From Candidatus Moraniibacteriota bacterium (GTDB lineage Bacteria > Patescibacteriota > Minisyncoccia > Moranbacterales > DUUL01): 64,000 nt of DNA. Made by a program: the position numbers and the translations under genes. The notes under the pieces were generated by a model. It saw only the letters and a list, made by a program, of their open reading frames with translations. It searched no databases and was not told the DNA's origin. The DNA lies in NCBI GenBank assembly GCA_041596615.1, contig JBFHIG010000005.1:1214-65213 (forward strand), in the 5' to 3' direction. Numbering within the stretch: the stretch's first letter is position 1; the number at the start of each line of letters is the position of its first letter. This document shows positions 2,455 to 49,032 of the stretch, piece after piece.

Positions 2455-4236
2455 TTAAAAGCCTTTCAATTCCTGTTTTCTTTTCGCTAAAGTTGTCCAT
2501 TCTTGTTGTAAAATTTCAGCACTTTCATCGTCATCTAAATCTTCTGCTTTTTGAATATCTTTTTTTATAAGATTCATCTTCCTGTCAATTGATTCTATTT
2601 CAAGACCAGCAACTATATTCATCCACTCCCGTTTCGAATCGATATCATTCTCAATAAACCCCTGAACTCTATCATGACTATATTTAATACGCAAAATAAG
2701 CTTATTTAATTTCTGAGCCAACTCCTCATCAATGTTTTTTTGAATAATTTTTTGAAAAATCATCTTCCCTTCTTCACTTAAAAGGTCGAGATTAAAATTA
2801 CTTGCCGCCTCAAATAGTTCTGCTGTAAATAAAGCAAGCAAACCCAGAAGCCTTTCCTCTAAGACAACTTTTTTAGGTCTATTAATTTTTTCAGTCCTTT
2901 CTTTCTGTGCTAATTGTTCAATCCTAGCAGGATTAACAATATCTTTTTTAAGAGTAACCTTTTCTAAAACATTAGTCAACACTTCTTCCTCAATGTCAAT
3001 TTTGGATGACAACTTTTTAATCCAATAACTCTGTTCAATTGGGTCTGCTATATCTTTAATTATATTTAGGAGTTCTTTGGCAATCATTTTCTTACCCCGA
3101 ACATCCTGCTTATTATTCCTCCCTAAAGAATTTTTAAAAAAATATTTCATCACAGGAACTGTTTTTTGAGAAAGTTTTTGCCAAATTTTAGCATCCTCCA
3201 AAACCAAGTCACCAACATCCTTCATTCCCTTTGGCAATAAAATAACCTCCACTTCCATCCCCTCCTGCAAACAAATCTGTATACTCTTTTCTGTCGCTTT
3301 TTGACCTGCTTCATCTGCATCTAAGCACAGCTTAACGTTTTGTGTAAATCTTTTCAACATCCTGACTTGCTCAATTGATAATGCTGTTCCGGAGATTGCA
3401 ACAACGTTCTTTATTCCAGCATAATGCGATGCTATTACGTCCATATTTCCCTCAACTATAAAAACTGCGTCCTTTTTACGTATCTCATTTTTTGCCTGGT
3501 AAAGACCATATAAAACACGACTCTTATCATAAATAATGGACTGTGGCGTATTTATATATTTTGCATTATTTTCGTTGTCACCCGGCACAACTCTAGCAGA
3601 ATATCCAACAACAGCTCCCGTTTCATTGATAACAGGAAACATTATTCTATTGCGAAACCGGTCATAATCTTCACCTCCTTCTTTTGGAATAGACAAGCCG
3701 GTTTCAGCAATCTCAGTGACCGAATAGCCCTTATTTCTTAAATAAGTAATCATTTTCCGCCATTCGTTTGGGGCATAACCCAGATTAAAATCAGAAATCA
3801 ACTGCTTGTCGATTTTTCTATCTTCAAGATATTCTCTAATTTGCCTTCCAATTTCCGGATGTTTCAAGTATTTTGAATAAACTTGAACAGAAATCTCTAA
3901 AATCTCAGCCGCTTTTTGTTTTTTGGTTCGATTTTCAATGCTGGTCTTGCTTTGAAACTTGGGCAATTCAACATTTGTTTTCTCGGCCAAACGAATAAGT
4001 GCCTCGCGAAAATCTAAACCTTCAATTTCCATTAAAAAAGAGAATATATCACCACCTCTTTGACATCCAAAACAATACCAGAAATTCCTCTCTGCGTTAA
4101 CCATAAAAGAGGGGGTCCTCTCATTATGAAAAGGACAGAGTGCTTTATGATTAACACCTGCTTTTTCTAACTTCACATATTCGCCAACCAATTCAGCGAC
4201 TGTGAGCCCTTCTTTTATTTTCTCTTTTGCATCCAT
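2455..4236 (-). CDS. dnaG: DNA primase
   Basis: 593 aa. Zinc-ribbon CPFHNERTPSFMVNAERNFWYCFGCQRGGDIFSFLM. TOPRIM region VFIVEGNMDVIASHYAGI...CLDADEAGQKA. Confidence 0.95.
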   Translation of the reverse strand: MDAKEKIKEGLTVAELVGEYVKLEKAGVNHKALCPFHNERTPSFMVNAERNFWYCFGCQRGGDIFSFLMEIEGLDFREALIRLAEKTNVELPKFQSKTSIENRTKKQKAAEILEISVQVYSKYLKHPEIGRQIREYLEDRKIDKQLISDFNLGYAPNEWRKMITYLRNKGYSVTEIAETGLSIPKEGGEDYDRFRNRIMFPVINETGAVVGYSARVVPGDNENNAKYINTPQSIIYDKSRVLYGLYQAKNEIRKKDAVFIVEGNMDVIASHYAGIKNVVAISGTALSIEQVRMLKRFTQNVKLCLDADEAGQKATEKSIQICLQEGMEVEVILLPKGMKDVGDLVLEDAKIWQKLSQKTVPVMKYFFKNSLGRNNKQDVRGKKMIAKELLNIIKDIADPIEQSYWIKKLSSKIDIEEEVLTNVLEKVTLKKDIVNPARIEQLAQKERTEKINRPKKVVLEERLLGLLALFTAELFEAASNFNLDLLSEEGKMIFQKIIQKNIDEELAQKLNKLILRIKYSHDRVQGFIENDIDSKREWMNIVAGLEIESIDRKMNLIKKDIQKAEDLDDDESAEILQQEWTTLAKRKQELKGF

Positions 4237-4313
4237 TTTTTATTCTCTTTTGCGCTATTTACTTGTCACTTGTAAAATACACTAAAGAGATTTTTTTTTC
4301 AACAGTCAAATTT

Positions 4314-5402
4314 CTATTCACTCAAAACAGAATCCATGCATCTTACAAGATTCTCCATATCAAGAACAGAAATTGCGGGAAAATTGGCGATTCTAATTGT
4401 AGTTTCCTTAAGATCGCCATATCCTTTTCCCAATAAAAAACCTTTTTCTCTACATTCTTTGTGCAACTTCATTATAGTGTCCTTACTTGATTCTATACAA
4501 AAAACAGTATTGGAGCGATTTAATAAATCTTTCACAAAAAAATTAACAGACTCATTATTCTCAACAAATTTGGTAAATATCTCTTCTTTTTGTTTCATTT
4601 CTTCCTGAATCCTCTCCATACCACCATTTTCTAAATTACGAGAAAAAATCTTCGAAAGCAGAAAGATTCCCAAAACATTAGGAGTTGAAAATGTTTGATA
4701 TTTATCAATCATTTTAGCCCTAAGTCTTTCAAAAGTGAAAATACCGGCTCTACTCTTATTCCTTAAATCCAACTCATTAGACTTTTCCACAGCTCTTGGG
4801 GATAGAACCAAAATCCCTAGACCCGATGGGAGCCCTAAACATTTTTGCACAGAGAATAGCCAAATATCAGCAAGTGCAAAATCAAATTGAATCGCACCTG
4901 CAGACGATGTTATGTCAATAGCCAAAATTGAATCAGGGTTCTTCTCTCTCACGAAAGCGATTTCTTTTAACTGGCACATAACACCGGCACTGGTTTCGTT
5001 GTGAGTGATAGAAATAAAATCAATTTCTTTGTCAATTTCTACAGAGGGGAAATCATTTAATTCTCCCTCATTTACTTCGTCCAAAAAAACCTTTTTACCA
5101 TTGGCCTTTGAAATTTCTGAAAATAATTTGGAAAAATTTCCATTCACAAAATGAAATGCTTTTTCATCGCAACAGTTTTGAACCGCTAATTGCATAGATT
5201 CAGTTGCTGAAGATGTAAAAATAATTTCATAATCCTTTGGTATTCCCAAAAAACTCTTCATACCTCTAACAGTTTTTTCGGAAATTTTAGTGAAATCTTC
5301 CGATCTATGCGATATTTCCAAAATACCTTCAGAAAGAGCTTCCTTAATATCCTTTTTCACTTCATCTGAAATTCTCGACGGTCCGACATTAAATGTTATC
5401 AT
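4314..5402 (-). CDS. serC: phosphoserine aminotransferase (class V aminotransferase)
   Basis: 362 aa. N-terminus ITFNVGPSRISDEV. PLP-lysine context FSVQKCLGLPSGLG. Directly downstream of serA. Confidence 0.75.
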   Translation of the reverse strand: MITFNVGPSRISDEVKKDIKEALSEGILEISHRSEDFTKISEKTVRGMKSFLGIPKDYEIIFTSSATESMQLAVQNCCDEKAFHFVNGNFSKLFSEISKANGKKVFLDEVNEGELNDFPSVEIDKEIDFISITHNETSAGVMCQLKEIAFVREKNPDSILAIDITSSAGAIQFDFALADIWLFSVQKCLGLPSGLGILVLSPRAVEKSNELDLRNKSRAGIFTFERLRAKMIDKYQTFSTPNVLGIFLLSKIFSRNLENGGMERIQEEMKQKEEIFTKFVENNESVNFFVKDLLNRSNTVFCIESSKDTIMKLHKECREKGFLLGKGYGDLKETTIRIANFPAISVLDMENLVRCMDSVLSE

Positions 5403-5418
5403 ATTGTAAATGCTATTT

Positions 5419-6648
5419 TTAATATAATTTTCTTGCCCTGATTGTATTAGGTATTGCGTTTAACTCCTCCATAATAGAGCTTTCTATTTTATCAGCATCT
5501 ATACCAATAACAACATACCCAACATCTGAATCTGTTTGGAGATATTGTTCTGCGATATTTAAATTGTTTGAAGAGAATACTTTTATGATATCCTCCATAA
5601 CTCCTGGAACATTTTTATGAATATGTAGAAATCTACATCTTTGAGAATTTGGAGGAAGCTGAACTCTAGGAAAATTCACAGCACTGGTGGTTGTTCCTAT
5701 GTCACTATAATCAGCAAGTTTCTCAGCAACTTCAAACGCGATATTTTGTTGAGCCTCTTGTGTACTTCCTCCAACATGAGGCGTGATCAAAACATTCTCA
5801 AATGCTCTTAATTCTGAATGAAATTCCTCTTCTTTGGAGGCTGGTTCTGTTGGAAAAACATCGATCGCAGCTCCCAAGATATCACCTTTCTCCAGGGCTT
5901 TTTTCAACTCATCAATGACAATGACATTTCCGCGAGATGCATTTATTAAATAAGAACCTTTTTTCATCTCTGCGACTTCGTTCTGACCAATCATCTCTCT
6001 TGTTAGATCAGTCCCCGGAACGTGCAATGTTACAACATCAGAGATATTCAAAAGCTCTTTCAACGATGAGCACATTTTGGCATTTCCAATAGAAAGCTTG
6101 TTTTCTATATCGTAATAATAAACTTTCATTCCCATGGCTTCTGCTAGAATTGAAACCTGTGATCCAATATGCCCATACCCCACTATTCCAATCGATTTCC
6201 CTCTAATCTCAAAAGAATTTTCTGCACTCTTAAGCCACCCCCCTCTATGAGCTAACGCATTTTTCTCTGGAATTCCCCTCATCAAAAAAACTGATTCAGC
6301 GATTACCAACTCTGCAACACTCCTTGTATTCGAATAGGGAGCGTTAAATACTGGGATGCCGAGTTTTTTTGCCACGTTCAAATCAACTTGATTAGTTCCA
6401 ATACAAAAATTCCCAATCGCAATAAGCTTTTTTGCGCTTTTAAGAACTTTTTCGGTCAACTGAGTTCTTGAGCGAATTCCAATCAAATGAGTATTTTCTA
6501 TCTCCGCCAGAAGTTCTTTCTCTTCTAAAGCCTTTTTGTAATATTTGATGTTCTCATACCCCCTCCCACGAAAATATTCAACTGCATTTTCATGAACCCC
6601 TTCGAGTAATAAAATCTTTATTTTTTCACGCCTAAGTGATAGTGTCAT
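5419..6648 (-). CDS. serA: D-3-phosphoglycerate dehydrogenase (ACT-domain type)
   Basis: The ORF runs to 6678, but M11 (MTLSLRREKIKILLLEG) gives a 410-aa product. Motifs FCIGTNQVDL, GIPVFNAPYSNTRSVAELV, GIVGYGHIGSQ, INASRGNVIVIDEL, TPHVGGSTQEAQ. C-terminal ACT region ends IRARKLY. Confidence 0.9.
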   Translation of the reverse strand: MTLSLRREKIKILLLEGVHENAVEYFRGRGYENIKYYKKALEEKELLAEIENTHLIGIRSRTQLTEKVLKSAKKLIAIGNFCIGTNQVDLNVAKKLGIPVFNAPYSNTRSVAELVIAESVFLMRGIPEKNALAHRGGWLKSAENSFEIRGKSIGIVGYGHIGSQVSILAEAMGMKVYYYDIENKLSIGNAKMCSSLKELLNISDVVTLHVPGTDLTREMIGQNEVAEMKKGSYLINASRGNVIVIDELKKALEKGDILGAAIDVFPTEPASKEEEFHSELRAFENVLITPHVGGSTQEAQQNIAFEVAEKLADYSDIGTTTSAVNFPRVQLPPNSQRCRFLHIHKNVPGVMEDIIKVFSSNNLNIAEQYLQTDSDVGYVVIGIDADKIESSIMEELNAIPNTIRARKLY

Positions 6649-31145: not shown

Positions 31146-31221
31146 ACTTACTATCTTTTAGCTAAAAATCCTATCAAAAAACATCCCTTGGATCAAACTG
31201 GGATGTTTTTAATTATTGGTA

Positions 31222-36200: not shown

Positions 36201-36415
36201 GATTGTAAAAGTTGTTATATTTTCTCCAATAATATCACTAAAGGCTGCAAAGTTGCAAACGAAGTTATATCCTCTCCCTTAATCCAAAGGGGAGTTGGGG
36301 TGGGATATGGTCTGCGCAGGAAACCTTAACCCCTCCTAGTCTCCCTGCCTCGCTCTGGCTTGCCATGGCGGGCCCTTAAAACTAGTGGGAGGAATAACTG
36401 CTTTCCTGCAATTCG

Positions 36416-36453: not shown

Positions 36454-36532
36454 ACCACCAATAGGAAAATTACTCTCGCTAGACAAATCCATAATAAAAT
36501 GATAAGTTAGGAAAGTTGAAACCTTGAAAGAA

Positions 36533-36891
36533 GAATAGTTTAAAATAACGGAGAGATGCCTGCCAGCCCAAGGCTGGTCCGCCTAGGGCGGAAGTGGTAA
36601 TATAATGCTATGCACTATGTTTATATACTACAAAGCAAGTCTTCTGGAAAATTGTACAAAGGATGTACGAGCGATTTAAGGCGAAGAATTGCAGAACACA
36701 ACAACCGAAAGGTTATTTCTACGAAAGCAGGTGTGCCATGGCGACTGATTTATTACCAAGGACTTCTCAACAAAAAAGATGCACTGCGTGAAGAAAAATT
36801 TTTAAAAAGTGGAAAAGGAAGAGAAAGATTGAAATATTTGCTAGAAGATACCTTAAAAACTGAATAGCTTAGAATAACGGAGAGATGCCTG
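36533..36891 (+). mobile_element. GIY-YIG cassette bounded by a 30-bp direct repeat that includes the first 13 nt of tRNA-Ser(GCT)
   Basis: 36533-36562 gaatagtttaaaataacGGAGAGATGCCTG versus 36862-36891 gaatagcttagaataacGGAGAGATGCCTG (28 of 30 identical). A weaker match extends about 12 nt further left. Two GC-rich hairpins and the GIY-YIG ORF lie between the copies. Confidence 0.6.
36610..36867 (+). CDS. small GIY-YIG nuclease family protein (COG2827/YhbQ-like)
   Basis: 85 aa. YVYILQSKSSGKLYKGCTSDLRRRIAEHN...PWRLIYYQ...REEKFLK carries the GIY, YIG, Arg and Glu hallmarks. Confidence 0.85.
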   Translation: MHYVYILQSKSSGKLYKGCTSDLRRRIAEHNNRKVISTKAGVPWRLIYYQGLLNKKDALREEKFLKSGKGRERLKYLLEDTLKTE

Positions 36892-36965
36892 AGCGGCTGA
36901 AAGGGGCACCCTGCTAAGGTGTTGGGCTTTCACGAGTCCCGGGAGTTCGAATCTCCCTCTCTCCG
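36879..36965 (+). tRNA. tRNA-Ser (anticodon GCT), long variable arm
   Basis: GGAGAGA-TG-CCT...AGG-G-GCACC-CTGCTAA-GGTGT-(long arm)-GGGAG-TTCGAAT-CTCCC-TCTCTCC-G. No encoded CCA. Confidence 0.9.
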
Positions 36966-36970
36966 CACAT

Positions 36971-37001
36971 AAAAAACATCCTATTTTGTAGGGTGTTTTT
37001 T
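36971..37001 (+). terminator. intrinsic terminator after tRNA-Ser(GCT)
   Basis: Stem acatccta / tagggtgt (one G-U pair), loop ttttg, T-run 36996-37001. Confidence 0.7.
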
Positions 37002-37027
37002 GATAGGAGTTTGTTACTTTAGAACTT

Positions 37028-38056
37028 TTGATGATAGTATATAATAAAATAATCTCAAAATTTCTCAACAATTATTCCATGGAACCGCAAACTTTTATTG
37101 AAGAAAGGTTAAACAATTTAAACTCTAGTGAACATACCTTTGAACAAGAAAACGCCACCAATTTAGAGGCGGAAATTTTGCGTTTACTTCTTTTCAAAAA
37201 ATTTAGAAAATATTCAGCAAGCGAAGAACTAATAAATCATTGTAAGAAAGCAATTTCGATACAGGTGTCAGACAATAAACCTATAAATATAACTTTTCTA
37301 CATGGAGCATATAAACTTTGGCGATTAGAGGAATCTCCTTGCGTAGATTGGGCGGAATTTTTTTCACTTTTATATTACACTGATTGGGTAAAAGGTATTT
37401 GCAAAATATATAAGCCAGGCGTCTGGTTTGATTTTTTTGTTGATGATCTAATTGTCCCGAAGCTTGATAATATTCCAATGAATGATGTTGAAAAGTATAT
37501 TGAATCATACAATCAATTGATAAATTTTATCAAATTTTATCAACCAAAAAATCTGAAAATGACAATTACACCAGTTGGTTCGAAGTTTAAATCTGCAGAA
37601 GAATTTGAGGATATTTTAAAGCAAAAACTCAATGAACTTAATAGAAAATCAAATAATCAATTACCTAAGCTGACAGATTCTCAGCGAGCAATGATTGAGC
37701 TTAATGTTAAACTAAATCAAACACAGAAAAAAGACCCTACTTGGCAGGAAAAAATATGGCAATTACATAATGCTTATTTGGAAATAAAAAAATCGCTCGG
37801 TTACCATTTTCGTCCTGAAAAGATATTGGCATTCACACAACCTTTGCCATCAGGCAGTACAATATCTGTTGGGACAACAAAATCTTCAATAATGAAATTT
37901 TGGATTGGAGCGGGAGTATTAAAACCAAGGGACACTTCATACCAAGAAGTAATATTCTCTCCATCTCAATTGAAATCAGCAGATTTTCAATGGTTGGATA
38001 TGAAAATAAAAGGTCTTAATGGAGAGAATTTTGAAAAAATTAGAATACTTAAGTAA
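37028..38056 (+). CDS. hypothetical protein (orphan; no family recognised)
   Basis: 342-aa ORF. M18 at 37079 (MEPQTF...) is a plausible alternative start. Coding-like composition, no TM or signal sequence. Lies between the two copies of the tRNA terminator repeat. Confidence 0.6.
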   Translation: MMIVYNKIISKFLNNYSMEPQTFIEERLNNLNSSEHTFEQENATNLEAEILRLLLFKKFRKYSASEELINHCKKAISIQVSDNKPINITFLHGAYKLWRLEESPCVDWAEFFSLLYYTDWVKGICKIYKPGVWFDFFVDDLIVPKLDNIPMNDVEKYIESYNQLINFIKFYQPKNLKMTITPVGSKFKSAEEFEDILKQKLNELNRKSNNQLPKLTDSQRAMIELNVKLNQTQKKDPTWQEKIWQLHNAYLEIKKSLGYHFRPEKILAFTQPLPSGSTISVGTTKSSIMKFWIGAGVLKPRDTSYQEVIFSPSQLKSADFQWLDMKIKGLNGENFEKIRILK

Positions 38057-38198: not shown

Positions 38199-38228
38199 AA
38201 AAACATCCTATTTTCTAGGGTGTTTTTT
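38199..38228 (+). terminator. second copy of the tRNA-Ser terminator hairpin
   Basis: aaaaacatcctattttctagggtgtttttt. It is part of a 49-nt repeat (38199-38247) matching 36972-37020 at 43 of 49 positions. Confidence 0.65.
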
Positions 38229-38346
38229 GATAGCGATTTGTTGTTTTGAGAATTTAAATGTATTATTGAATCAAATATTTAGATGCTAGCAAAAATTGCT
38301 AAAAATAAGGCATTTAAATTCAAATATTAATACCAATAAAAATTTT

Positions 38347-48651: not shown

Positions 48652-49032
48652 ATTTAGTTTCACCAACAAATAAGCTGGATTCTGTTACTCAAAAGAGTTG
48701 CAATCATTTATCTATGTTGAGTGTTTCCAAACAACTTTAGCGGCACTTTCTGATTTCTCAAAACACGGCCTTGCACCAGATAGGGTTTTCCACAACTTGT
48801 TGTCACCAACAAGCGAGCTTTGTAGCAATCATCTTGACGATCACACCAATGCACTTTTCACCTTTCCCTGCCAAAAGCGGGTAGTATTGTCTCTGCGGCA
48901 CTATCCCTTGTCTATCATTACTGATAAAACCGATCGGCATTACCGATTATCCATATCATTAAAATGATGGTGTCCAGACTTTCCTCTTTAAAAATAATTT
49001 TAAAGCGATTGCATTGCAAGCGAAACTACCTT
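48652..49032 (-). ncRNA. rnpB: RNase P RNA, bacterial type A
   Basis: The minus strand reads ...GAGGAAAGTCTGGACACC (P4 5' strand), GGCAGGGAAAGGTGAAAAGTGC, GGTGCAAGGCCGTG, CATAGATAAATGATTGC and ACAGAATCCAGCTTAT (P4 3' strand). These occur in the canonical order. P1 pairs GGTAGTTTCGC with GTGAAACTA. End coordinates are good to about 10 nt. Confidence 0.9.

Follow-up and report, generated by a model that had tools for sequence, protein, structure and literature searches.

A GIY-YIG nuclease gene between broken and intact copies of a tRNA-Ser gene: a candidate homing-type cassette at tRNA genes of Patescibacteria

Patescibacteria have tiny, streamlined genomes in which the tRNA genes are mostly single-copy. 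In the window analyzed here – the whole stretch of DNA, 64 kb long – an intact tRNA-Ser(GCT) gene is preceded by a broken copy of its own 5' end, with a double hairpin and a small GIY-YIG ORF in between. The question raised by this locus is how a nuclease gene came to lie between two starts of the same tRNA gene. The answer favored here, with a probability of about 60%, is that the locus is a selfish homing-type cassette, one that spreads by break repair in tRNA genes and rebuilds the tRNA. The first-pass annotation of this DNA had described such a cassette; that observation is confirmed, and it can be sharpened.

A repeat search found a direct repeat of 45 nt, at 36518–36562 and 36847–36891, with 84% identity and a spacing of 329 nt. 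Both strings of the 30-nt repeat in the first-pass annotation were recovered at its coordinates. The two 45-nt copies, both on the forward strand, flank a pair of 6-bp GC hairpins and an 85-aa GIY-YIG ORF. The upstream copy consists of the remnant of an ORF tail (ETLKEE-stop, 36518–36538), an 11-nt spacer, and positions 1–13 of a pseudo-tRNA-Ser (36550–36562). In the downstream copy, the end of the ORF (its last seven codons and stop) is followed by an 11-nt spacer and by positions 1–13 of the intact tRNA. The earlier reading of in-frame ETLKEE-stop and DTLKTE-stop in the two copies was correct. Only these two copies of the tRNA-derived 13-mer, GGAGAGATGCCTG, are present in the 64 kb of the window. 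An extension upstream of the 45-nt repeat, looking for more of the older ORF, gave no further significant similarity between the copies.

The double hairpin (36563–36592, no strand assigned) sits between positions 13 and 14 of the pseudo-tRNA. The first hairpin is CCAGCC-CAA-GGCTGG (36563–36577) and the second is TCCGCC-TAG-GGCGGA (36578–36592). Both had been seen before, but the second loop is 3 nt (tag) rather than the 2 nt given to it. The upstream tRNA copy had been described as breaking off after position 13, but it does not end there: AGTGGT (36593–36598), directly after the 30-nt insertion, resumes a D-loop-like sequence, with two mismatches to the AGCGGC of the resident tRNA. This continuation (36593–36609, forward strand) decays to an AT-rich leader before the ATG of the ORF (36610–36867, forward strand). 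As had been noted, the downstream repeat copy leads into an intact tRNA-Ser(GCT), at 36879–36966 on the forward strand, called by ARAGORN and matched over its full length by the Rfam tRNA model (52.3 bits).

A hairpin and then a T-run, found as an inverted repeat 3' of the tRNA (36971–37001, forward strand), are likely the terminator of the unit; a consensus terminator scan passed over them, the stem being too poor in G-C pairs. A consensus scan for sigma-70 promoters found none that was convincing upstream of the pseudo-copy. The tRNA is presumably co-transcribed with the ORF and freed by RNase P. The G+C content of the window is 35%, and searches by tblastn and self-blastn found no second GIY-YIG gene or hairpin cassette in its 64 kb. 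A group I intron or other known RNA was considered and rejected: Rfam, at E up to 10, matched the tRNA alone.

The ORF matches the Pfam GIY-YIG family, as the first-pass annotation had proposed (PF01541; 52 bits against a cutoff of 22.6, E 9e-14). In an alignment of 29 sequences R26, H30 and E62 are invariant and Y3, Y5 and Y16 nearly so, and dN/dS in pairs of homologs is 0.016–0.19; the product is under purifying selection and its catalytic core is intact. The AF2 model (pLDDT 95) has the order strand-strand-helix-helix-strand-helix of the alpha/beta GIY-YIG fold, with Foldseek matches to UPF0213, Slx1, I-TevI and UvrC domains. Slx1 is matched at a TM of 0.63–0.67 and 28–31% identity, I-TevI at 0.56 and 15%. 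A profile search against the PDB ranked the UPF0213 structure 1zg2 (E 4e-11) ahead of SLX1 (E 1e-4 to 1e-2) and I-TevI (E 0.34). By sequence and predicted structure, then, the putative nuclease is of the Slx1/UPF0213 branch and not of the I-TevI/Seg branch. It is minimal: the 85 aa are the catalytic core alone, and no DNA-binding domain for long-site specificity is present, which makes classical sequence-specific homing hard to picture.

Homologs of this protein are abundant (5,569 representative clusters in the nuclease family at E ≤ 1e-10), and a set of 80 homologous loci from Patescibacteria genomes was compared. Units of hairpins and a GIY-YIG gene next to tRNA genes, for which the first-pass annotation had suggested a search, were present at essentially every one of the loci looked at. 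Seventy of the 80 have a tRNA gene on the same strand no more than 60 nt past the ORF. The others are four that reach a contig end, five with an intervening pseudo-piece, and one mirror image (L079), in which positions 57–76 of the tRNA and 41 nt of its 3' flank are duplicated and the hairpins lie 3' of the ORF. The downstream tRNA is mostly tRNA-Ser, with all four anticodons represented: the counts are Ser-GCT (22), Ser-TGA (20), Ser-CGA (12), Ser-GGA (8), Tyr (4), Asp (3) and Cys (1). The 5' part of the tRNA is duplicated in 79 of the 80 loci, and in most of them the duplication begins precisely at tRNA position 1. This is where the homology between tRNA genes starts, as expected if repair were driven by homology. 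The genes that recur in the flanks of the loci are housekeeping genes (ComF-like, RecG, PilM, ClpB); no recombinase, DNA-binding partner or other gene of a mobile element is among them. No relatives were found among the viral contigs of IMG/VR, which were searched for possible vectors.

The hairpin pair forms a module, conserved and covarying, by which the point of interruption is marked. A strict double hairpin lies 0–40 nt ahead of the ATG in 70 of the 80 loci. Stem positions 1–3 covary (CG/TA, CG/GC, AT/CG/GC), the loops are CNA and TNG, and the consensus is identical on both strands. The 30-mer in the window is predicted to fold as two separate, thermodynamically stable hairpins. A single long hairpin was rejected, since among the 57 distinct 30-mers just one is perfectly palindromic. 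The tRNA fragment that hosts the hairpins is a copy of the tRNA downstream: the 12 nt to their left match the tRNA of their own locus in 41 of 65 loci, compared to 1.1% for tRNAs of the same amino acid from other loci, and the 6 nt to their right carry on the resident tRNA with 0–1 mismatch in 50 of 65. The insertion points vary – 8|9, 12–15, 20–23, the anticodon loop, the T loop – and, apart from being rich in purines on the 3' side, have no clear sequence motif in common. Scattered positions of this kind do not fit a single recognition site. Nor is the hairpin motif a genome-wide dispersed repeat, a possibility that the first-pass annotation had raised for the 30-nt repeat, because CNGCCNNNGGCNG occurs in the 64-kb window only at the cassette and at one unrelated site, with 0.11 occurrences expected by chance.

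Among related genomes the presence of the cassette is polymorphic, and it switches between tRNA genes. A search with the tRNA sequence itself found empty sites on five metagenome contigs, in near-identical tRNA-Ser(GCT) genes from related, non-conspecific genomes; these are identical to the window's gene over positions 10–43 and have neither ORF nor hairpins. The first-pass annotation had asked whether such sites exist; the arrangement is not fixed. Upstream of the empty sites is a promoter-like spacer with TTGACA- and TATA-like elements. A search by synteny gave no such sites: the closest homologs of the neighboring alpha/beta hydrolase (71%, 66% and 59% identity) are in unrelated neighborhoods with no tRNA-Ser. 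Proteins 84–90% identical are found at Ser-CGA, Ser-GGA and Ser-GCT genes, and such closely related proteins at different homologous sites imply movement. The tandem units of L094 and the mirror image of L079 give further support for mobility, as do solo hairpins in pseudo-tRNA pieces next to intact tRNAs.

The loci also include both fresh and decayed arrays. L094 has two tandem units of tRNA part, hairpins and ORF that are 99.1% identical, and L005 has up to three divergent copies stacked at one tRNA. The closest relative of the window, L096, shares its repeat of ORF tail, spacer and tRNA positions 1–13, about 49 nt of it perfect by eye; by count, 41 of the 44 nt that precede tRNA position 1 are identical. 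In the window and in L096 the form is a collapsed one, with only the tail of the ORF retained in the upstream copy. Since the 45-nt repeat contains that tail, the simplest reading is the remnant of an array after deletion of the upstream ORF. The first-pass annotation had offered two origins for the footprint, entry of a cassette with a replacement tRNA 5' segment and tandem duplication followed by decay; L094 on the one side and the window with L096 on the other make these two stages of one process.

In the homing-type reading, the cassette would consist of the strand-symmetric, GC-rich double hairpin, the ca. 85-aa Slx1/UPF0213-like GIY-YIG gene, and a replacement tRNA 5' segment. The nuclease would cut a tRNA gene that has no interruption, within a loop or next to one. 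Homologous recombination with a cassette-bearing copy would then mend the break, with tRNA sequence on both sides serving as the homology, and this repair would copy the hairpins, the ORF and the tRNA 5' segment into the target gene. In the window, the interruption of the resident tRNA-Ser(GCT) would have fallen between positions 13 and 14; the displaced 5' piece, with the hairpins in it, would persist upstream, and an intact tRNA would have been re-formed directly 3' of the ORF. Insertion of the hairpins would destroy the target in the displaced copy. A second cut in the intact tRNA downstream, if mended out of register with the pseudo-copy upstream as template, would give a tandem array. As the intact tRNA would stay a target, either a standing cost or some protection is implied. 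The source of the hairpin pair at a new position is not accounted for by the homing-type reading. A more far-reaching version can be put forward only tentatively: that these loci represent a new class of bacterial homing element, in which a domain-minimal Slx1-like nuclease would read DNA structure instead of a long sequence – tRNA-gene DNA able to form stem-loops or a cloverleaf – and cut at loops and junctions, the double hairpin would mark and immunize the broken copy, and out-of-register repair would always regenerate the tRNA, so that tRNA-Ser and tRNA-Tyr genes across Patescibacteria would go through cycles of invasion, tandem amplification and collapse.

Some of the same evidence could be read with the hairpins as the mobile part. 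The double hairpin would then be a MITE-like unit that enters tRNA genes at single-stranded loops, with the GIY-YIG protein as a nuclease or transposase acting in trans and the ORF as the cargo of an autonomous version; the tRNA duplication would be a matter of survivorship, only insertions that have a spare copy being viable. Contiguous tRNA sequence does surround the hairpins in every case, and solo hairpins with no ORF are found in pseudo-tRNA pieces adjoining intact tRNAs (L044, L065, L036, L074, L051, L067). The two ORFs of L094 are 99% identical, yet the older of its units bears additional hairpins in the D loop and in the anticodon loop; the T loops of L065 and L091 hold a second, unrelated double hairpin of 20+20 nt. 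We nevertheless consider this reading unlikely. The hairpins are not dispersed – there is one pair in 64 kb, and across the loci nearly all pairs are within 40 nt of an ORF – and no target-site duplications flank the 30-mer. Gene conversion from a hairpin-bearing pseudo-copy would account equally well for the solo copies, and we know of no GIY-YIG transposase.

Two other readings place the function of the locus in the host or in its RNA. The pseudo-tRNA start and the hairpins may act in the transcript: the promoter and leader of a tRNA would have been captured, and the 5' hairpins would be conserved because they protect the joint RNA of ORF and tRNA or serve in its processing. The pseudo-copy keeps the native upstream flank of the tRNA, where the empty sites have their promoter-like elements; the hairpins are stable; and the ORF frequently ends within the tRNA, so that the two must share a transcript. 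Such a role could coexist with homing, but as an explanation it is improbable: an RNA element has no need of a strand-symmetric consensus, the hairpins of L079 are on the 3' side of the ORF, and the solo hairpins of L036 and L074 are downstream of intact tRNAs. We give still less credence to the idea that the ORF is a housekeeping gene, encoding for example a nuclease with tRNA or another RNA as its substrate, co-transcribed with tRNA-Ser and surrounded by repeats that arose from local replication slippage without selfish mobility. The conserved same-strand order of ORF and tRNA and the strong purifying selection would suit such a gene. A role in RNA has also been suggested before, on the strength of a prokaryotic fusion between an Slx1-like GIY-YIG domain and the tRNA Gm18 methyltransferase TrmH (PMC1564403). 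A housekeeping gene would not be expected to be missing from near-identical tRNA-Ser(GCT) loci, to occupy different isoacceptors in close relatives, to stack or form tandem arrays as in L005 and L094, or to be accompanied in every case by a broken tRNA copy. One-fifth of the contigs (16 of 80) also terminate within 400 nt after the ORF, as at repeats or polymorphic sites.

Homing at tRNA genes has an experimental precedent. The GIY-YIG endonuclease SegB of phage T6 cuts within tRNA genes, and recombination then yields tandem repeats of tRNA-Tyr and segB (PMC13096335; PMC2330249), which arise through short homology between the 5' end of the tRNA and the 3' end of the gene (PMC13096335). That homology resembles the 45-nt repeat of the window, and the proposed cleavage of tRNA genes and spread by recombinational repair have their counterparts in the T-even Seg proteins, whose genes also lie beside tRNA genes. 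The Seg proteins differ from the cassette protein in their larger size, their DNA-binding domains and their place in the I-TevI branch; their genes also lack a hairpin module, and no interrupted pseudo-copy of a tRNA is left behind by them. SegB is also a phage protein, while the cassette is found in cellular genomes and no relatives of it were found among the viral contigs searched.

Islands and prophages that integrate at tRNA genes similarly bring a copy of the displaced part, so that the gene stays intact and a direct repeat results. These elements have an integrase, are kilobases long and duplicate the 3' part of the tRNA; the cassette has no recombinase, is a 329-nt unit with the GIY-YIG ORF alone, and duplicates the 5' part at all but one of the 80 loci. 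In fungal mitochondria, a mobile endonuclease ORF with a duplicated gene end has reportedly been found at atp6, where it too supplies a new gene end, the old one remaining as a pseudo-fragment, though such ORFs are said to target the 3' ends of protein genes. Fungal mitochondrial double-hairpin elements, or DHEs (Paquin & Lang 1996 and Paquin et al. 2000, as cited in PMC10085805), are similar in form: as summarized there, they consist of two short GC-rich hairpins side by side, in genomes rich in AT, and are presumed mobile. In that account DHEs are organellar, with many copies per genome dispersed in intergenic and rRNA regions, while the cassette hairpins occur once per locus, tied to the ORF or in pseudo-tRNAs, and always within tRNA sequence.

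The Slx1/UPF0213 (YhbQ-like) proteins, the best matches in sequence and structure, share a stand-alone minimal GIY-YIG domain with the cassette protein in their prokaryotic Slx1-like members (PMC1564403). Slx1 differs in that it partners Slx4 on branched repair intermediates, and neither linkage to tRNA genes nor selfish behavior of UPF0213 proteins was reported in the literature searched. Group I introns occur in tRNA genes of the same phylum, including at an unusual position, 35|36 (PMC13011429), at which hairpins are also found in the anticodon loop of a pseudo-tRNA-Ser(TGA). Unlike these introns, the cassette has no ribozyme detectable with Rfam and nothing to splice, since a complete tRNA lies 3' of it. 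No description of the arrangement was found in the full-text literature open to search without subscription.

The loci have practical consequences for genome annotation. Assemblies break at them, gene callers run ORFs on through the hairpins, and the pseudo-tRNA pieces can mislead tRNA annotation. If the homing-type reading is correct, Patescibacteria would carry an abundant selfish element inside essential tRNA genes, one that needs neither splicing nor a recombinase and survives by rebuilding the gene that it breaks. The biology of homing endonucleases would then reach the Slx1/UPF0213 branch, whose members in bacteria still lack an assigned function, and the orphan UPF0213 family would gain a testable substrate, the DNA of tRNA genes together with a defined double hairpin. 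The cassette would be a cellular counterpart of the SegB-driven amplification of tRNA genes recently described in phage.

The repeats, hairpins, ORF and intact tRNA-Ser(GCT) that the first-pass annotation had read from the sequence were all found again in the window. The duplicated 30 bp that includes tRNA positions 1–13 is present, and a repeat search merges it with a weaker leftward extension into a single 45-nt direct repeat (36518–36562 and 36847–36891; 84% identity, spacing 329 nt). The tRNA-derived 13-mer GGAGAGATGCCTG occurs exactly twice in the 64-kb window. The downstream repeat copy leads into the intact tRNA-Ser(GCT) at 36879–36966 (ARAGORN; full Rfam tRNA model, 52.3 bits), with a hairpin and T-run found 3’ of it by repeat search at 36971–37001. 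The tRNA is absent from a whole-window Rfam scan at gathering thresholds and scores 52.3 bits against a threshold of 29 in a scan of a 901-nt region; the omission is a filter effect with no bearing on the tRNA itself.

The upstream copy leaves the tRNA at position 13, as described earlier, and enters two hairpins (36563–36577 and 36578–36592; stems of 6 bp, loops of 3 nt) that together fold as DNA at −12.5 kcal/mol (z −2.5). The tRNA copy had been said to break off there. However, the AGTGGT directly 3’ of the hairpins resembles D-loop positions 14–19 (AGCGGC in the resident tRNA), so the upstream copy is interrupted at position 13 by a 30-nt insertion, not truncated there; past this motif it decays into an AT-rich leader. 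The 85-aa GIY-YIG ORF follows at 36610–36867 (Pfam GIY-YIG, E 9e-14). As first noticed, the repeat holds the last codons of an ORF – the final seven – and since their DTLK is a conserved protein tail in the family alignment, that stretch is not tRNA flank. The GIY-YIG gene and the hairpin pair each occur just once in the 64-kb window.

Several other features lie in the window. Between the start codon of a hydrolase gene and the cassette, the GC-rich region 36262–36410 is strongly structured, more so in its minus-strand fold (−61.5 kcal/mol, z −4.0) than in its plus-strand fold (z −2.0). It matches no Rfam family and could form a structured leader at the 5’ end of the hydrolase mRNA or an uncharacterized small RNA. 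The segment 36416–36453, ca. 65 nt 5’ of the repeat, is a perfect palindrome (TTAGATGCATCTATAGAG GT CTCTATAGATGCATCTAA; arms of 18 nt, centre of 2 nt). A module of ca. 80 nt, combining a terminator-like hairpin with a promoter-like TTTAGA-16-TATAAT, is present in three copies of ca. 82% identity (36972–37050, 38199–38276 and, on the minus strand, 31163–31210). A bacterial class A RNase P RNA is encoded at 48655–49024 on the minus strand (158.7 bits); the tRNA would be expected to be freed from an ORF–tRNA transcript by RNase P.

The arrangement recurs across Patescibacteria. Every named organism among the 111 close homologues of the protein in a large protein collection belongs to this group, and the family as a whole comprises 5,569 cluster representatives at E ≤ 1e-10. 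Scanning a single genome for each species returned 205 relatives, and 80 of these loci were examined. In 70 of the 80, no more than 60 nt separate the last aligned codon from the start of a same-strand tRNA gene; in four the contig ends where the tRNA is expected, in five a pseudo-tRNA piece intervenes, and one (L079) has a mirror-image arrangement. The partner tRNAs are Ser-GCT (22), Ser-TGA (20), Ser-CGA (12), Ser-GGA (8), Tyr (4), Asp (3) and Cys (1), and additional, more divergent ORF copies adjoin Glu and Thr tRNA genes. In many loci the ORF overlaps the tRNA, with its TGA or TAG stop at positions 12–15. Seventy of the 80 loci have a strict double hairpin that ends 0–40 nt 5’ of the ATG. 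The 12 nt to the left of the hairpins match the locus's own downstream tRNA exactly in 41 of 65 cases, compared to 1.1% for same-amino-acid tRNAs of other loci, and in 50 of 65 the 6 nt to the right extend that tRNA with at most one mismatch. The left edge of the duplication is exactly tRNA position 1 in most loci. The first-pass reading of a cassette within a tRNA gene is thus supported and extends well beyond this genome, as does the hairpin plus GIY-YIG unit that was to be sought next to other tRNA genes.

The genes flanking the loci are ordinary housekeeping genes, with no recurrent recombinase among them. In one locus, L096, a large serine recombinase and a ParB/methylase gene lie 3’ of the occupied tRNA-Ser(GCT) (3449–6255), which suggests a separate element integrated at the 3’ side of the tRNA; a rve-type transposase lies on the upstream side.

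The hairpins form a well-defined module. Over 57 distinct 30-mers the GCC...GGC core is constant by construction of the search, while stem positions 1–3 are variable, with near-perfect covariation (CG/TA, CG/GC, AT/CG/GC). Hairpin 1 has a CNA loop and hairpin 2 a TNG loop, making the consensus identical on both strands, and only one of the 57 is a perfect palindrome. The covariation argues for pairing within one strand, and the strand symmetry points to a function as DNA, not in the transcript. The interruption point varies: 8|9, 12–15 or 20–23 around the D arm, the anticodon loop (TTG^AAAA, 35|36 in Ser-TGA) or the T loop (GTTC^GA). A pseudo-tRNA-Asp (L063) has hairpins in both D and T loops. 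ORF-less hairpin pairs exist in pseudo-tRNA pieces adjoining intact tRNAs, and in two loci (L036, L074) the hairpin-bearing pieces are 3’ halves that follow the intact gene. Pseudo-tRNA-Ser pieces carry, in their T loop (GGGTTCG^AATCC), another and unrelated type of strand-symmetric double hairpin (20+20 nt, e.g. CCGGGTCATCCGACCCGGCG TCCAGTCGGATGACTGGGCG) at L065:3368–3407 and L091:7370–7409. Anticodon-loop hairpins at 35|36 are seen in the pseudo-tRNA-Ser(TGA) of L005, L013, L019, L022, L034 and L052. [quoted passage not shown]

R26, H30 and E62 are invariant in the family alignment and the motif tyrosines nearly so, and dN/dS between homologue pairs is 0.016–0.19. A profile search of solved structures ranked UPF0213 first (1zg2, E 4e-11; 1ywl), then SLX1 (E 1e-4 to 1e-2), with I-TevI at only E 0.34. 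The AlphaFold model (pLDDT 95) superposes best on UPF0213 and Slx1 nuclease domains (TM 0.63–0.67, 28–31% identity; I-TevI, TM 0.56, 15% identity). The protein is therefore a minimal stand-alone Slx1-like form (Dunin-Horkawicz et al., PMC1564403), and its 85 aa leave no room for a DNA-binding domain. Many family representatives, along with P0017 and P0062, are annotated with 25–45 extra N-terminal residues running through the hairpins and pseudo-tRNA (e.g. ...PPKADPPRAG...); these are spurious extensions in databases, due to early gene-caller starts.

Several lines of evidence point to movement. Empty sites, the check proposed at first pass, were found: in five of eight metagenome contigs whose tRNA-Ser(GCT) positions 10–43 equal those of the window, a promoter-like spacer and a divergent gene lie upstream, without ORF or hairpins. 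In Moranbacteria-type genomes, proteins 84–90% identical adjoin Ser-CGA, Ser-GGA and Ser-GCT genes; these loci resemble one another from pseudo-tRNA position 1 onward, with unrelated flanks 5’ of it. Only 34 of 73 proteins share their tRNA type with their nearest protein neighbor. Tandem duplication, raised at first pass as another origin of the footprint, occurs in L094, a 1519-nt contig with two units of tRNA 1–56, T-loop hairpins and ORF that are 99.1% identical. The upstream, older unit has gained more hairpins, in the D loop and in the anticodon loop; two seem to stand apart within one pseudo-tRNA, one at 12|13 and its reverse complement after ca. position 21, and the anticodon-loop hairpin is a decayed third. 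Up to three divergent GIY-YIG ORFs (40–44% identical) surround one tRNA-Ser(TGA) in L005 (2590–3710), the first preceded by a variant double hairpin (2637–2670, 34 nt; loops apparently 5–6 nt by eye). The mirror-image L079 reads intact tRNA-Tyr, 41-nt 3’ flank, ORF, AGGTTC, hairpins, tRNA 57–76 and the same 41-nt flank. Sixteen of the 80 contigs end within 400 nt past the ORF; short-read assemblies seem to fail at these loci in the way they do at repeats or polymorphic sites. The Logan contig of the window itself (L001) stops 57 nt past the ORF, at what in the window is the start of the tRNA.

Judged from these sequence comparisons, the cassette is most likely a homing-type element, and a plausible mechanism can be outlined. 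The nuclease would break a tRNA gene that carries no insertion, at a loop or where a stem meets a loop; both ends, bearing tRNA sequence, would pair with a cassette-bearing copy, and gap repair would copy in the hairpins, ORF and tRNA 5’ segment. The resident 5’ segment would stay upstream with its native flank, leaving a complete tRNA after the ORF. Because tRNA-gene homology begins at position 1, the duplication would have its sharp left edge, transfer among similar tRNA-Ser genes would be easy, and the ORF core would always lie ca. 20–30 nt from position 1. A second cut in the intact copy, with an end pairing out of register with the upstream pseudo-copy, would add one unit; the L094 array looks like just such a product. 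The hairpins may protect the broken copy or act as the enzyme's structured substrate, and ORF and tRNA probably share one transcript. There is experimental precedent by analogy: the T6 GIY-YIG endonuclease SegB cuts within tRNA genes at the motif RAWTSGAAC, and tandem tRNA-Tyr plus segB repeats then arise by recombination, through a short homology that the tRNA-Tyr 5’ end shares with the 3’ end of segB (PMC13096335). In our reading, not that paper's, the motif looks like the T-loop consensus.

Three other explanations were weighed. That the hairpin pair itself is the mobile unit, with the nuclease as helper, is unlikely but deserves some weight: solo hairpins exist and L094 has additional ones, yet the hairpins are tightly linked to the ORF and have no dispersed copies. 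A leader function at the RNA level, which would be compatible with a homing-type element, is improbable given the strand symmetry of the hairpins and their position 3’ of the ORF in L079. Slightly less probable still is a housekeeping gene co-transcribed with tRNA-Ser; strong selection on the ORF and an old hint from a TrmH fusion (PMC1564403) speak for it, but it fits poorly with empty sites, switching, stacking and arrays.

As a homing-type element, the cassette would work much as a free-standing homing endonuclease gene does. Like tRNA-integrating islands and mitochondrial endonuclease ORFs flanked by double-hairpin elements (PMC10085805), it brings a replacement piece of its target gene. 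It differs from all of these in lacking a recombinase, intron or DNA-binding domain, in a nuclease from a different GIY-YIG branch, in a dedicated covarying hairpin module within tRNA loops, and in duplicating the 5’ and not the 3’ part of the tRNA (79 of 80 loci), the junction already noted as unusual. No description of the arrangement was found in the openly searchable full-text literature, and a recent survey of Patescibacteria tRNA introns makes no mention of GIY-YIG (PMC13011429).

The closest relative of the window, L096 (76% identical), is also at a Ser-GCT gene and has a perfect repeat of ca. 49 nt with nearly the same left boundary and a different sequence. Either the cassette has been recurrently lost by recombination between the repeats and has re-invaded, or conversion homogenizes both copies; each implies an ongoing process, not one ancient accident.
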